Origin: Escherichia phage vB_EcoM_WFbE185
Length of the DNA stretch: 64,000 bases
Reading direction: 5' to 3' (one strand)
Sequence record: MK373778.1
In this document: positions 35,559 to 42,545 of the stretch, one piece after another
How the letters are laid out: every line of letters begins with the position of its first letter
Position numbering within the stretch: position 1 is the first letter of the stretch
Program-made: the position numbers and the translations under genes
Notes under the pieces: generated by a model
Told to the model about the DNA's origin: nothing
What the model saw: the letters and a program-made list of their open reading frames with translations, nothing else
Databases searched by the model: none

Positions 35559-35599
35559 TTTATTCTCCAGATGTTTAAGTTGTTTGTTGGTACAGGTCT

Positions 35600-35628
35600 A
35601 TAATAACATAACCTGTACCAAAGTAAAC
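35600..35628 (-). promoter_or_regulatory. T4-type early promoter with flanking inverted repeat
   Basis: Minus strand GTTTAC-N17-TATTAT; 9-bp inverted repeat (35589-35597 / 35611-35619) brackets the -10. Confidence 0.55.
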
Positions 35629-35632
35629 TGTT

Positions 35633-36001
35633 TTATGCAACTTTAATCCAATTGTCTAAATTTAAAACACCTTTGGCTTTCATTTTTTCGATCAGGTTAT
35701 CTGCTGTAATGCGTCCATTTTGATACCATGTAACATCTTCAGAGTAACCAGTTTCTTCGTCAACATATGTTTCTGAACGAATTTTACCGGTAATAATAGT
35801 TTTTAATTCGTATGTGTCACCTGTGAAAAAGTTTGCTAACACAATTTTCCAAGAGAAATCATCAGAAGGACCTTCAGGGGTCATACAACCTACGAACTCA
35901 AATTGCTCTTTGTATAACATCCACTGGAATTCTTTAATTTCGATAGCTTTATAACCGTCGTGGTCTTTACATTTGATGTATGAGTTCAGATTGATTTTCA
36001 T
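35633..36001 (-). CDS. hypothetical protein (T4 30.8-like position)
   Basis: 122 aa; early promoter upstream. Confidence 0.5.
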   Translation of the reverse strand: MKINLNSYIKCKDHDGYKAIEIKEFQWMLYKEQFEFVGCMTPEGPSDDFSWKIVLANFFTGDTYELKTIITGKIRSETYVDEETGYSEDVTWYQNGRITADNLIEKMKAKGVLNLDNWIKVA

Positions 36002-36043
36002 TTTGTTCTCCGGTTTGTTTTATTGATTAGGTGGTACAAGTCT

Positions 36044-36072
36044 ATAGTAACACATCCTACAGGAGAGTAAAC
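36044..36072 (-). promoter_or_regulatory. T4-type early promoter
   Basis: Minus strand GTTTAC-N17-TGTGTTACTATAGAC upstream of the ORF at 35633-36001. Confidence 0.55.
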
Positions 36073-36108
36073 ATCTTTTTAAACTTTTTCTGCCCTAAAC
36101 GCACAAAA

Positions 36109-36126
36109 GGGAGACCGAAGTCTCCC
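36109..36126 (-). terminator. intrinsic terminator after the small basic ORF
   Basis: Minus strand GGGAGAC-UUCG-GUCUCCC followed by UUUUG. Confidence 0.65.
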
Positions 36127-36131
36127 TAAAA

Positions 36132-36311
36132 TTATGCAACAACCTTTCCAAAACGAGAAGCATCATCTCGAAGAACTGCACGTGCTCTGCGCATGATCTT
36201 CTCAACTGTTTGATTAATACGAGAGTTCGACCCACGCTTGTATCCAGCGCGTTTAGAGGTACCATCAACTTTCTTTTCAACTGCTTTCTTTGCTTTAGCT
36301 TGTTTTGCCAT
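36132..36311 (-). CDS. small highly basic protein
   Basis: 59-aa ORF, below the track cutoff, found by hand: MAKQAKAKKAVEKKVDGTSKRAGYKRGSNSRINQ...; SD AAGAG; terminator hairpin 6 nt after its stop. Confidence 0.5.
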   Translation of the reverse strand: MAKQAKAKKAVEKKVDGTSKRAGYKRGSNSRINQTVEKIMRRARAVLRDDASRFGKVVA

Positions 36312-36523
36312 TATAAATTCTCTTTAAATGAAAATGCAGGACTTATTGACATTGCCTGCGCAAGCCCTCAAGGGGAACATAGGTTTTGGATATTTAACGA
36401 CAGGATAACCATAAACCCGTCATCATACCAACCACGACTTAGACAGATAACCTTTTTCTGACGCGTGATAGTACAAAATACATTCAAGAGGTACACCGTA
36501 AAACTGCCGTGGTCTTAAAACTA

Positions 36524-36543
36524 TAATGATTCGCAAATCATTA
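36524..36543. repeat. perfect 20-bp palindrome TAATGATT-CGCA-AATCATTA in a non-coding region
   Basis: 8-bp perfect inverted arms with a 4-nt centre, read directly from the sequence; function unknown. Confidence 0.6.
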
Positions 36544-36606
36544 ATCAGACAGTTCGACGGCTCCTCGATTTTCTAGCCGCACTTAAGGTAGCGAATCACC
36601 TAAAAC

Positions 36607-39658: not shown

Positions 39659-39934
39659 TTAAATTGCTTTGCATTCAATTTTTTGTGTACCGAAATTGAT
39701 ATCACATTGGATAACTAAATCGCCGTCAAGATCAAATACCACGATGACGTGTGCAGACCCAGGGAGAAGAGTAATAGCAATAGAATCTACTTGGTCTGGG
39801 AGCAAAGCATTGAGTACATGAGTTACTTGAGCATGAACTCTGAGTTCGGCTGCATTATTAAGCACTTCAAACATATTATTAGCAATAATCTGACTGAAGA
39901 CTACCTTTACAATTTCAGAATAAGTTGGGAACAT
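39659..39934 (-). CDS. hypothetical protein (cd.x region)
   Basis: 91-aa ORF. Confidence 0.45.
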   Translation of the reverse strand: MFPTYSEIVKVVFSQIIANNMFEVLNNAAELRVHAQVTHVLNALLPDQVDSIAITLLPGSAHVIVVFDLDGDLVIQCDINFGTQKIECKAI

Positions 39935-39941
39935 AATTACC

Positions 39942-40166
39942 TCAGTGCACAGTATTTACTTTAACTCGAACAACAAATCGCTCGGTTGGTTCACCTACAG
40001 GAACAAACTCTACATGATATTCACCTTTGTAACGAGTATTCAGATCATTACGAATTCCTGCGAGTTTGTTGATTAATGTAGGACTCATATTAAGTCCCAC
40101 TAGTTTACGAAGCATTTTGTATGCTTCATCTTCGATTTCATGATGTTTATCGTACATAGTTTTCAT
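39942..40166 (-). CDS. hypothetical protein (cd.x region)
   Basis: 74-aa ORF. Confidence 0.45.
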   Translation of the reverse strand: MKTMYDKHHEIEDEAYKMLRKLVGLNMSPTLINKLAGIRNDLNTRYKGEYHVEFVPVGEPTERFVVRVKVNTVH

Positions 40167-40338
40167 TTAACCATTCAATTGCCTGGTCGACGTTATCAAA
40201 TATACCACCGTCCAAACGTTCTTCATGCTCATAGTCCAGCACATCAATACCGAACTGTCCATTTACTAAAGGCCAGGCTACAAACAAATATTCTTTATGC
40301 TGTTCGATTGTACGAAAAATCTTTTCGATGTTATTCAT
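40147..40338 (-). CDS. hypothetical protein (cd.x region)
   Basis: 63-aa ORF. Confidence 0.45.
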   Translation of the reverse strand: MNNIEKIFRTIEQHKEYLFVAWPLVNGQFGIDVLDYEHEERLDGGIFDNVDQAIEWLNENYVR

Positions 40339-41053
40339 AAGTTTTCCATTTTCTACCTAGTTGCCAGTCCGGGCTGTTTAATCTAGGATCGTTTATATCG
40401 GTGGTAGAAGACTTTTTACCTGAAATATGGATTAACCATTTTCTAGATTTAGCTGCTTTAGAATAATTTTCTTTAGCCTTATCACTTCTAACCTTGCCTT
40501 TATTGGATTTGGATATTTTATTACCCCATTCAATAATAGACTCTTCACTCATAAAATCTTTAACATTCTTACCATACATAGGATTATTTTCGCCTTTAAA
40601 CGTATTACCATTTTTAAGACGGGTTTCTTTAGATTTAATCCCATGACCTGGCAATTTCTTACCTTTAATCCAAGGAACCACACCATTATTAAATCGTTCT
40701 TTTTGCGATTTAGAAATTTTTGCAGATGTTTCTGGGCTTGAATTAACATTAATACGATTTTCATTAATATAATCCCAGCCTCCTTCTCCGCCAGGTTTCA
40801 AATTGTAATTAGTATCCAGTTTTATAAATTCTTTAGTTACTAATTTGGCTTCTAAATCATATGCTTCTTGTTTAGTTTCAAATATTTTTATGATTTCTTT
40901 ATTAAAAGAATCTTTACCATATTTTGATTCAGCATTTTTAAAAGCTGTACCGGAACCTAAATAAGAATCATTTTCTTTTAAGGTCTTATGAACCCCTATA
41001 TAAATTTTGTTGTTAACCAAACATGTGGTTTTATACACAGTGTATTTTTCCAT
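40331..41053 (-). CDS. GIY-YIG homing endonuclease (Seg-like, freestanding)
   Basis: 240 aa from ATG at 41053 (SD GAGGTGA 5 nt upstream); N-terminal GIY-YIG module VYKTTCLVNNKIYIGVHKT...YLGSG and C-terminal NUMOD-like basic repeats. Confidence 0.8.
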   Translation of the reverse strand: MEKYTVYKTTCLVNNKIYIGVHKTLKENDSYLGSGTAFKNAESKYGKDSFNKEIIKIFETKQEAYDLEAKLVTKEFIKLDTNYNLKPGGEGGWDYINENRINVNSSPETSAKISKSQKERFNNGVVPWIKGKKLPGHGIKSKETRLKNGNTFKGENNPMYGKNVKDFMSEESIIEWGNKISKSNKGKVRSDKAKENYSKAAKSRKWLIHISGKKSSTTDINDPRLNSPDWQLGRKWKTYE

Positions 41054-41071
41054 TAGAATCACCTCTATAGA

Positions 41072-41079
41072 TATTTATA
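41072..41079 (-). promoter_or_regulatory. late promoter (TATAAATA) for the homing endonuclease gene
   Basis: Reverse-complement TATAAATA 18 nt upstream of the ATG at 41053. Confidence 0.5.
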
Positions 41080-41100
41080 TTCATCTATGGAGATTTCTAA

Positions 41101-42000
41101 CTAAAAGTCACCGAATGCGACTTGCCAACATTCTAAACCAATACGACGCCACATTTCCACAACCTGGTTACGGTCATCAACGGCCAATTTCACATCATAA
41201 TAAGGAGCAATACGGTTCCAAAAGAGTTCTTCCTTAACAACATCATCCTTACGAGTGTCACCTTGATTACGTTGAATATGCATTTCCCATGGAATAGAAA
41301 ACGTGTCCATCCATTTTTTAGTTGCTTCATAATAACACATTGAATCTTCTTTAGTTCCAGATTCACGACCGCTTACAGTAATAATTGTATACCCGGCCTG
41401 ATGAAGCATCTTAACATATTCGACAACCATAGGGTTCGGGACATCTGTGGATAGTTTATCCAACTCATAAGGCCCACGAGCAACATGTAGAGCTAAAGTC
41501 CCGTCAAGGTCGAAGATAACCGCTTTAGGTTTACCCGGAGTTCCTTTATAAACCGGAAGTCCTTTGTATTCACGCATATGAGAATACATCGAACGTAGAA
41601 CATCAATAGGAACGGCCTTTGTGCCGCGCTTGGCATTACGTTTAACCAATTCAGTCCATGGAACATCGAACACTTGATATACAATTTCATGACCCCACTG
41701 CTTAGCGTATTCTTCCCAGACAAGACGACGTTCAGGATTTAAGTTGGTGTCAGAAATAATAACACCCTTAGTTCCGTCTTGACAGAGAATCATATGTGCC
41801 GCATCGTGTTGCATATAAGTTACGATACTTTCTTTCTTTTTAGTGTATTTGTACTCGTCACGTTCTTCATGGCCCATGATGGATTGGCGATAATCGTCGC
41901 GGTTGATATTAAAGAACCCAGGATTCTTAGCAATAAATTCACGAGCCCAAGTGCTTTTACCAGACCCAGGACAACCTACAGTCAAAATAATCTTTTTCAC
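41101..42000 (-). CDS. pseT: polynucleotide 5'-kinase / 3'-phosphatase
   Basis: 299 aa; Walker [10 protein letters not shown] and phosphatase DLDGTL; matches recalled T4 Pnk. Confidence 0.95.
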
Positions 42001-42188
42001 AGTTTTACTACCTCTTCAGCAAATTCAAATTGTCCACCAAGAATTTTAGCAATTTCACGTCCTAGTTCAGCACCTTTCTTGCAATCTTGCATAGTCCAAG
42101 AATCGCCATTCTGTGATTTACGAAGAGCCCGTGTATTGATATCTGCTACAAGCGTATGGATTAACTTATCGATTTTGGCTTGGTCCAT
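41997..42188 (-). CDS. hypothetical protein
   Basis: 63-aa ORF overlapping pseT start. Confidence 0.45.
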
Positions 42189-42487
42189 TATTTTATTCCT
42201 AAGAAAGTTTCAAGAATACGAATGTTATGCTCGCGCCGGTCTTTATTAATTTCAGCAACGTTTTTATTAATTGACGTACTTCTAACGTTTGAAGAAATAA
42301 ATTTAATCATATGACTTTTGAGTTGTTGCAAATCCAACCCTTTTTCTTTAGCAGCTTTACGAAGAGCTTTACCTGCTTCATCTAGTGCCTTTGCTGCATC
42401 TTTGTCATAATTGACAAGTGACATTCCACGGCAGATATCAATATACTCGTCAGACCGTTTGATGTAATTCTCTAGTAATGTTTTCAT
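42188..42487 (-). CDS. hypothetical protein
   Basis: 99 aa; SD GAGGAA; early promoter upstream. Confidence 0.5.
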   Translation of the reverse strand: MKTLLENYIKRSDEYIDICRGMSLVNYDKDAAKALDEAGKALRKAAKEKGLDLQQLKSHMIKFISSNVRSTSINKNVAEINKDRREHNIRILETFLGIK

Positions 42488-42515
42488 TTAGATTTCCTCA
42501 ATTATCCATAGGAGC

Positions 42516-42545
42516 ATTATACTCTGCTCCCGAGAGTTTGTAAAC
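42516..42545 (-). promoter_or_regulatory. T4-type early promoter
   Basis: Minus strand GTTTAC-N18-TATAAT; short inverted repeat GGAGCA / TGCTCC around the -10. Confidence 0.55.

Follow-up and report, generated by a model that had tools for sequence, protein, structure and literature searches.

The stretch analysed here, 64,000 nucleotides of DNA from Escherichia phage vB_EcoM_WFbE185 (sequence record MK373778.1; hereafter the window), carries early promoters in which the -10 hexamer lies in the loop of an inverted repeat, and it is with these embedded repeats, and the RNA hairpins predicted from them, that we are concerned. The window comes from a Mosigvirus phage, and the approximately 8 kb around these promoters share 95-99% identity with Mosigvirus (RB69-like, T4-type) coliphages, among them PNJ-9 and vB_EcoM_G53. 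The annotation of these relatives gives the gene order 30.6-30.7-30.8-rIII-31-cd-DAHP synthase-cd.2-cd.3-(SegD)-pseT-...-alc on the minus strand; all of the genes and promoters in question have this orientation, and each element discussed is therefore to be read on the minus strand. Twelve clear early promoter cassettes are present in the window, and we name promoters by the coordinate of the outer end of the -35 element (e.g. P35628, P39656, P42545, P51823). P35628, P39656 and P42545 have the form GTTTAC-N17/18-TAnnAT followed by a Shine-Dalgarno (SD) sequence and ATG, and sigma70-like promoters of the GTTTAC-N17/18-TA(T/C)(T/A)AT type, in the orientation of the downstream gene, are predicted at 35628, 39656, 42545 and 51823. 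At these four promoters the SD sequence and ATG lie 20-45 nt beyond the -10, and the upstream open reading frame (ORF) ends close to the -35, its stop codon being offset from that hexamer by -1 to +4 nt. The original prediction had put the -10 in the loop of an inverted repeat at three early promoters, and all of these repeats are present, with stems of 11, 10 and 6 (7) bp; its 9-bp repeat at 35589-35619 is the core of the 11-bp stem, and the end coordinate of the repeat given as 39618-39646 fits the 10-bp version. A fourth repeat-bracketed promoter, P51823, had been overlooked. The four elements are as follows.

35587..35628, minus strand: P35628, early promoter of gene 30.7 with stem-loop; -35 GTTTAC at 35623-35628; -10 TATTAT at 35600-35605; 5' arm TTGGTACAGGT at 35611-35621; 3' arm ACCTGTACCAA at 35587-35597; perfect 11-bp stem; 13-nt loop containing the -10
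39617..39656, minus strand: P39656, early promoter between cd.3 and cd.2 with stem-loop; -35 at 39651-39656; -10 TACTAT at 39627-39632; 5' arm TGGTAGAGTT at 39637-39646; 3' arm AACTCTACCA at 39617-39626; perfect 10-bp stem; 10-nt loop containing the -10
42510..42545, minus strand: P42545, early promoter of a 99-aa ORF (42188-42487) with stem-loop; -35 at 42540-42545; -10 TATAAT at 42516-42521; 5' arm (G)GGAGCA at 42525-42531; 3' arm TGCTCC(T) at 42510-42516; 8-nt loop
51786..51823, minus strand: P51823, fourth early promoter of the same type; -35 GTTTAT at 51818-51823; -10 TATAGT at 51794-51799; 5' arm ATAGGGCTA at 51803-51811; 3' arm TAGCCCTAT at 51786-51794; 9-bp stem

RNAfold assigns energies of -17.9 kcal/mol (z -6.5) to P35628, -17.2 kcal/mol (z -6.9) to P39656, -12.2 kcal/mol (z -3.3) to P42545 and -15.4 kcal/mol (z -4.2) to P51823. 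The stem at P42545 has 6 bp (42511-42516 / 42525-42530), or 7 bp if the G.U pair 42510/42531 is counted; the final T of TATAAT is also the first base of the 3' arm, and the -35 overlaps the upstream stop codon. The ORF downstream of P35628 matches the Pfam family Phage_T4_Gp30_7, and the T4 ortholog of P39656 is the annotated early promoter Pe133295 (the cd.2 promoter, given as Pe133331 in the list of T4 hairpins). Searching the whole window against Rfam 15 gave no match at the gathering score.

The occurrence of stems around early -10 elements is not due to chance, and the observation is statistically solid. The longest contiguous Watson-Crick stems around the -10 of the 12 early promoters are 3, 3, 8, 2, 3, 5, 10, 2, 11, 5, 3 and 6 bp, where P42545 is scored at 5 bp and reaches 6 bp once the last T of its -10 is permitted to pair. 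Stems of at least 5 bp are found at 6 of the 12 promoters compared to 9.7% of 1492 background TAnn[AG]T sites (binomial p = 4e-4), and stems of at least 8 bp at 3 of the 12 compared to 0.9% of the same sites (binomial p = 1.4e-4). Swapping the 3' flanks among the promoters, which keeps the positional composition, gives p = 1e-4. A general repeat search of the whole window was swamped by AT-rich palindromes, but a purpose-made scan for perfect stems of 8 bp or more and loops of 6-16 nt found just 21 in the 64 kb, three of which enclose an early -10.

Comparison with related phages shows that pairing between the arms is maintained. Orthologs of the promoter downstream of cd.3 (P39656) were gathered by their flanks, -35, TAnnnT and leader pattern, the arms themselves not being part of the query. 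Flank-anchored patterns recovered about 13 loci from IMG/VR and 10 from metagenomes, leading to one covariation alignment of 11 sequences (A1), and protein-anchored retrieval from IMG/VR yielded 1-14 close relatives per gene. The arms of this promoter are GGTAGAGTT/AACTCTACC in the window, GGTGGAGTT/AACTCTACC in the closest relatives (one G.U pair) and GGTAGAGTT/AGCTCTACC in T4 (one U.G pair). In Dhakavirus they are GGTAGGACT/AGTCCTACC, so that three positions differ, two of them changed on both sides. One metagenomic variant has two G.U pairs, and the variant L165 has a disruptive G.A pair. Within A1, 96.4% of the cells are paired, a value that falls to 19-55% when the 3' partner is slid by 1-3 columns; three pairs are changed on both sides. 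The alignment has a covariation score of 0.396 compared to 0.267 for shuffled alignments, none of 500 of which reaches the observed value. In addition, RNAalifold independently predicts the same helix.

The remaining promoters exhibit other patterns of conservation. In the sequences examined from T4, Dhakavirus, Gaprivervirus and Mosigvirus, the gene 30.7 promoter keeps its core arms GGTACAGG/CCTGTACC unchanged, except for one G.U variant (L014), even though the leader and upstream flank around them are strongly diverged, and the orthologous promoter of Serratia phage CHI14 has a wholly different 11-bp repeat, GGTGAGGGTCT/AGACTCTCACC, with one G.U pair. The P42545 cassette is approximately 95% conserved in Dhakavirus (VR5, locus L023, about 8500-8545) although the genes on either side are unrelated. 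As judged from the sequences, this placement between unrelated genes would be the signature of a recombination joint. A close relative has an A-U pair at the P42545 position where the window has G.U. Similarly, the cd.3-downstream cassette precedes different genes in VR5 and P896 than in the window and T4, and P51823-related cassettes in other T4-type genomes have the compensatory arms AGGGCTA/TAGCCCT and AGGGTTA/TAACCCT. The original prediction had suggested that covariation of the arms be looked for in related phages, and what we find is that the arms either covary (cd.2) or stay conserved while their flanks diverge; the refuting outcome that it had named, a lack of arm conservation or covariation, is not what the relatives show.

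Across T4-type phages more widely, 215 unique cassettes contain 46 distinct arm pairs in which 7 or more Watson-Crick pairs can form, and these have no common half-site. Single internal non-Watson-Crick pairs in these stems comprise 6 G.U pairs in the sense strand, 1 A.C pair and 7 transversion-type mismatches. Where only one arm has changed at the promoters of cd.2 and 30.7 and at P42545, the result is likewise mostly a sense-strand G.U pair, and further G.U cases are present in T4, G53, L014, L168, L153, CHI14 and L020. The direction of these one-sided changes is that expected of a helix in the sense RNA and not of a symmetric DNA structure. The embedded hairpins are a real, selected feature of these promoters.

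The position of the hairpins relative to neighboring genes provides a second line of evidence. Every promoter in the window for which the upstream ORF stops -1 to +4 nt from the -35 (P51823, P45133, P43950, P42545, P39656, P35628 and P28711) bears an embedded hairpin, some of these being located in the spacer and some being weak. The additional promoters, together with two terminators located at roomier junctions, are listed below.

45104..45133, minus strand: P45133, stem-loop inside the spacer, TACCACAA-GGA-TTGTGGTA, at 45108-45126
43921-43950: P43950, weaker relative
28677-28711: P28711, weaker relative, GGATG/CATCC around the -10
13047-13087: P13087, weaker relative, TTGATA/TATCAA
36105..36126, minus strand: canonical intrinsic terminator, GGGAGACTTCGGTCTCCC+TTTT, approximately 35 nt upstream of the -35 of P36072; an annotated terminator in phage G53
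52301-52322, minus strand: identical copy of this terminator, approximately 35 nt upstream of the -35 of P52273

P45133 (RNAfold -8.3 kcal/mol, z -2.6) is a different subclass, with a spacer stem-loop, of the promoter-early stem-loops (PeSLs) to which the window hairpins are compared below, and the folds of P43950, P28711 and P13087 are, taken singly, not significant. P36072 and P52273 have spare intergenic DNA and a terminator upstream, without an embedded hairpin, and P56244, which has a divergent neighbor gene, possesses neither. An upstream terminator is the alternative arrangement where intergenic space allows. In T4, embedded hairpins are seen at early promoters that include Pe20612, Pe57990, Pe73939, Pe129918 (30.7) and Pe133331 (cd.2), among others; using a cut-off of -8 kcal/mol or stronger, which was picked post hoc, they occur at 9 of 16 abutting junctions compared to 3 of 17 distant ones (Fisher p = 0.025). 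A literature search found no usable T4 3'-end or transcript-boundary maps.

Although true terminators are present nearby, the embedded hairpins are of a different kind. The terminator scan detected none of them, no T-run follows any of them, their 3' arms continue into CCAACAAA-type sequence, and their loops are of 8-13 nt. We considered and rejected their identity as canonical intrinsic terminators, given the missing U-tract, the large loops and a terminator scan that was empty at the promoters.

Three further observations concern hairpins and repeats in the same DNA. The 18-nt hairpin GGGAGACTTCGGTCTCCC, which has a UUCG loop, occurs four times in the window, at 12730-12747 and 61303-61320 on the plus strand and at 36109-36126 and 52305-52322 on the minus strand, with TTTT after the minus-strand copies. 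In the head-gene region, a perfect 14-bp hairpin at 14412-14445, AACGAAAAAGGGAC-CGTACG-GTCCCTTTTTCGTT, is flanked on both sides by A-runs and T-runs and looks like a bidirectional terminator. Finally, the start region of the gene 30.8 promoter (36044-36072), AGACTTGTACCA, is almost identical to the 3' arm of the neighboring 30.7 promoter (AGACCTGTACCA) and has no complementary 5' arm; this promoter may be a chimeric or decayed cassette.

On the basis of these data we think it probable, with moderate confidence, that the hairpins belong to PeSL-type composite cassettes, in which stem-loops that form in read-through RNA have been selected at tight gene junctions. Such cassettes would sit at junctions in which the -35 adjoins the upstream stop codon or shares bases with it. 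The -10 would end up in the loop because the -35, TG and -10 are fixed by promoter function, leaving only two stretches free to vary and to be selected for complementarity, the spacer from about -30 to -17 and the discriminator/start region from about -6 to +5. Judging from T4/sigma70 promoter geometry, the promoter's own transcript would start within the 3' arm, approximately 7 nt beyond the -10, and would therefore lack the 5' arm and be unstructured, so that only RNA arriving from upstream could fold. Read-through transcripts, which contain both arms, would form a stem-loop of 6-11 bp immediately after the upstream cistron, and the hairpin would functionally be part of that cistron. Its role is most likely that of an intercistronic attenuator or pause site, and/or a barrier to 3'-exonucleases that would give the upstream message a stable 3' end, as we infer by analogy; the downstream gene would then be expressed chiefly from its own promoter. 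The canonical U-tract would have been lost because the sequence past the stem is also needed as the next gene's leader. The conserved cassettes would, as a by-product, provide recombination points for gene shuffling. The original prediction had offered, as one of two options, a hairpin in read-through transcripts that serves as an attenuator or processing site; the RNA hairpin is favored by the covariation, the G.U pairs, the junctions and the precedent of the PeSLs (PMC2839356), whereas the attenuator role itself would hold by analogy.

The original prediction had also grouped the late promoter of a homing endonuclease with these early promoters. A repeat does bracket that late promoter, but the resemblance is superficial because the hairpin in this case sequesters the SD sequence and the start codon.

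41051..41092, minus strand: SegD-like late-promoter hairpin, sequestering the ribosome-binding site (RBS); 5' arm CTCCATAGAT at 41083-41092; 3' arm ATCTATAGAG at 41063-41072; late promoter TATAAATA at 41072-41079; SD GAGG at 41062-41065; ATG at 41051-41053

The stem has 10 bp with one C.A mismatch, and the late promoter lies in the loop, in the order CTCCATAGAT-GAATATAAAT-ATCTATAGAG. In the predicted fold (-16.4 kcal/mol) the SD sequence and the AUG region are both paired, and phage P896 has a compensated, perfect stem at this position. The ORF (40334-41053) contains Pfam GIY-YIG and NUMOD3 domains and encodes a SegD-like endonuclease. This architecture matches the computed folds of T4 I-TevI, segB and e, and the element is a separate, classical device of the T4 e / I-TevI / segB type. 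Read-through RNA would hide the SD sequence and AUG, and transcripts from the late promoter in the loop, being without the 5' arm, would be translatable. The T4 genes e, soc, 49, I-TevI, segB and mobE have RBS-sequestering hairpins with an internal late promoter, such that early read-through RNA is untranslatable and late transcripts are translated (PMC3014915). The SegD-like gene (40331-41062) is present in the window and in PNJ-9, and Gaprivervirus P896 has a homolog in the corresponding position. The other close Mosigvirus relatives listed, whose matches span only approximately 90% of the 8-kb query, lack the gene, G53 and JK45 having been checked by annotation. Elsewhere, near the nrdB region, a perfect 9-bp hairpin with an 11-nt loop is found at 46034-46062 (CTTCCATAA / TTATGGAAG), where relatives annotate an intron-like endonuclease gene, and this could be another RBS-sequestering structure.

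The T4 counterpart of P39656 has a peculiarity of its own. The T4 RefSeq record (NC_000866) flags 133300-133313 (L149, 14301-14314) as "inverted complement of previously reported sequence", and the flagged segment coincides exactly with the 14-nt loop enclosed by the 7-bp arms of the hairpin at the cd.2 promoter, orthologous to 39627-39636 in the window. We considered an invertible -10 loop and rejected it, as BLAST queries with the loop inverted match only a 1980s fragment, X03007.1. A search for both orientations in nature among about 250 T4-type and 118 Mosigvirus records found all of them to be native, and the inverted loop in X03007.1 probably reflects an artefact of early sequencing or cloning at the hairpin rather than a natural switch. 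Close to this site, the start of cd.2 in the T4 RefSeq record (L149, about 14262-14300) reads GTTAAAGGAATTCC compared to GTTAAAGAATTCC in T4 isolate OL964745; with this 1-nt indel, the ORF that begins at the obvious ATG ends after 17 codons, which may be the reason for the later annotated cd.2 start.

Several other explanations of the repeats deserve consideration. That they represent functionless chance complementarity in AT-rich promoter DNA is hardly credible. Stems of 5-6 bp, as at P42545, P28711 and P13087, are seen at 3-10% of background sites and half of the promoters carry no stem, but the 8-11-bp stems at 3 of the 12 promoters (compared to 0.9% of the background), the arm-swap permutation (p = 1e-4), z-scores down to -6.9, and covariation and conservation that hold across genera all argue to the contrary. 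The second option raised in the original prediction, an operator at which a dimeric DNA-binding regulator of phage or host origin blocks or activates the early promoter, finds no support because the arms share no sequence between promoters, the pairing being kept instead, and we regard it as very unlikely. The two halves of the repeat lie on either side of the -10, an arrangement found in many repressor operators, and the 30.7 and P42545 arm sequences are conserved across genera; this is difficult to reconcile, however, with 46 distinct arm pairs that lack a common half-site, with arm spacing that varies from 8 to 14 nt, and with a repeat that is present in only a subset of otherwise near-identical early promoters. 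Moreover, the arms of the cd.2 promoter change in a compensatory manner that keeps the pairing and not the sequence, and one-sided changes of the G.U type are tolerated even though they are mismatches to a palindromic DNA site.

Structure at the DNA level, whether cruciform or hairpin extrusion that tunes the -10 or targets for recombination or nucleases that drive gene shuffling, with no role for RNA, would account for the presence of cassettes at gene-replacement boundaries (P42545 in Dhakavirus; the cd.3-downstream promoter in VR5/P896 compared to the window and T4), for RB49 PeSL recombination products that were mapped within the loop (PMC2839356), and for the old T4 sequence in which precisely the 14-nt loop is inverted. 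Nevertheless, we find this explanation improbable. One-sided changes favor sense-strand G.U pairs, which symmetric DNA would not discriminate from A.C, the loop inversion is absent from the approximately 250 T4-type and 118 Mosigvirus records, and the tie to the end of a co-directional upstream gene, which gives way to a true terminator at roomier junctions, points to RNA. Short arms (6-11 bp) with loops of 8-13 nt also extrude poorly as cruciforms. Finally, the stem-loop might discriminate at the level of translation or decay, by making read-through mRNA a poorer template or substrate for the downstream gene (for example through the ribosome standby site or the ease with which RNase E or RegB gains access), and would then neither halt transcription nor shield the upstream message. 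This idea draws on the fact that the same spacer position provides an anti-SD arm in T4 regB, ipII and rnlA and in Merlin, CHI14 and VR5, where the downstream SD sequence is fully sequestered in read-through RNA, that the classical late-promoter hairpins act in this way (PMC3014915), and that GGAG, which is contained in the 5' arm of P42545, is shielded from RegB by RNA structure. The SD sequence and AUG are, however, unpaired in the predicted folds of the three window hairpins, and because the stems end 6-18 nt upstream of the SD sequence any translational effect would be mild; we consider this reading rather unlikely. Sequestration of the SD sequence by these three hairpins, as a candidate in its own right, was rejected because it is not predicted by folding.

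Anti-SD arms are nevertheless a feature of related phages, in which 10-15 nt of the spacer, directly following the -35, have complementarity to the downstream SD region, with fold z-scores of -4 to -6. The early promoters concerned are as follows.

T4, locus L148: regB, 62797
T4, locus L148: ipII, 65413
T4, locus L149: rnlA, 136336
Merlin, locus L146: 30.7, locus position 1961
Merlin, locus L146: rnlA, locus position 10085
CHI14, locus L145: rnlA, 10183
VR5, locus L023: rnlA, 9831

No strong example of an anti-SD spacer was seen in the window. In such folds, read-through RNA would hide the RBS and the promoter's own RNA would not. Because a spacer-borne 5' arm pairs with the downstream SD sequence in these phages, the early-promoter hairpins may form a continuum with RBS sequestration. 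By extension, we tentatively propose, as a possibility and not as the probable case, that a graded device of the T4 family marks mRNA by its start site: the 5' arm lies in the spacer, only read-through RNA folds, and the outcome ranges from a short hairpin near the RBS, as in the window, to full sequestration of the SD sequence. If this is true, each early gene in a packed array would be translated or stabilized essentially only from its own promoter, insulation would take place at the level of RNA and not by transcription termination, and the classical late-promoter trick (genes e and I-TevI) would be extended to early promoters genome-wide. Marking by transcript origin, if right, would explain the individual control of dozens of back-to-back early genes.

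Returning to the interpretation as PeSL-type cassettes with read-through stem-loops, a number of points weigh against it. The covariation amounts to few independent events, and the two fully compensated pairs rest on essentially two clades. The 30.7 and P42545 arms are invariant and do not covary, which could reflect recombinational spread of the cassette or sequence-specific constraints on the promoter. The count of G.U relative to A.C pairs is small (6:1) and not phylogenetically independent. The tight link between junctions and hairpins was noticed after the fact, and the corresponding link in T4 is borderline (Mann-Whitney p = 0.09). A convincing hairpin is missing from half of the window's early promoters, and, given loops of 8-13 nt and no U-tract, it is doubtful that termination would be efficient. 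If PeSL-type cassettes are nonetheless what the window contains, a phage with nearly no intergenic DNA would overlay two signals on 40 bp, a strong promoter in the DNA and a stem-loop confined to RNA that arrives from upstream. In genome annotation, repeats of this type in T4-type genomes would be designated as PeSL stem-loops rather than as operators or canonical terminators, and would also be regarded as likely recombination joints.

Comparison with known systems places these elements more precisely. Like intrinsic terminators, they are predicted to form an RNA stem-loop at the 3' end of a cistron, and true terminators (GGGAGACTTCGGTCTCCC+U4) are present at the roomier junctions of the window; the embedded hairpins differ in having no U-tract, loops of 8-13 nt instead of 3-8 nt, and stems that are moderately GC-rich. 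Bacterial intercistronic stabilizer stem-loops (e.g. REP elements, malE-malF) are U-tract-less hairpins past the stop codon that may block 3'-5' exonucleases and give rise to segmental mRNA stability. The window hairpins, in contrast, do not belong to the REP sequence family and are embedded in a promoter. In the promoters of the N4 virion RNA polymerase, a hairpin with a 5-7-bp stem and a 3-nt loop is the recognition element, and cruciform-regulated promoters also pair an inverted repeat with a promoter, whereas the window promoters are normal duplex sigma70 promoters for which the evidence points to RNA. The RBS-sequestering hairpins of T4 share with the SegD-like element a promoter within the hairpin, own transcripts without the 5' arm, read-through RNA that folds, and a paired SD sequence and AUG. 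The three early-promoter hairpins differ from them in leaving the SD sequence and AUG unpaired and in containing sigma70-type early promoters and not gp55 late promoters.

The closest likeness is to the PeSLs, which were described in RB49 and phi1 as strong sigma70-like promoters with stem-loops that mediate modular gene shuffling (PMC2839356, Arbiol et al. 2010), and were later reported for T4/PST and KVP40/nt-1 (PMC4122927, Comeau et al. 2014). The window elements have in common with them a strong sigma70-like early promoter, a stem-loop located in the spacer or over the -10, multiple copies in each genome whose stems vary, and a location at sites of gene replacement between related phages. 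PeSLs have also been proposed to be attenuators or terminators of upstream transcription, which is the role suggested above for the window hairpins, and one RB49 PeSL stem-loop cut expression of a downstream lacZ like a strong terminator, this being the only reporter evidence of the kind (PMC2839356). There are differences: the stems of RB49 are composed of G-runs and C-runs whereas those in the window are of mixed sequence, the T4/PST legend puts the stem-loops "just upstream" of the promoter whereas many of those in the window and T4 bracket the -10, and the covariation and the strand bias of the G.U pairs lie outside the published description. PeSLs were, in addition, described in RB49/phi1, T4/PST and KVP40/nt-1 and not in Mosigvirus (RB69-like) genomes, and a survey of RB69 promoters lists 57 early promoters without mention of hairpins (PMC1524935), so that a known kind of element gains Mosigvirus as a further host genus. 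With a sigma70-like promoter, a stem-loop, a tight intergenic site and a repeated cassette at gene replacements, the elements in the window are the Mosigvirus instance of the already described PeSL class.

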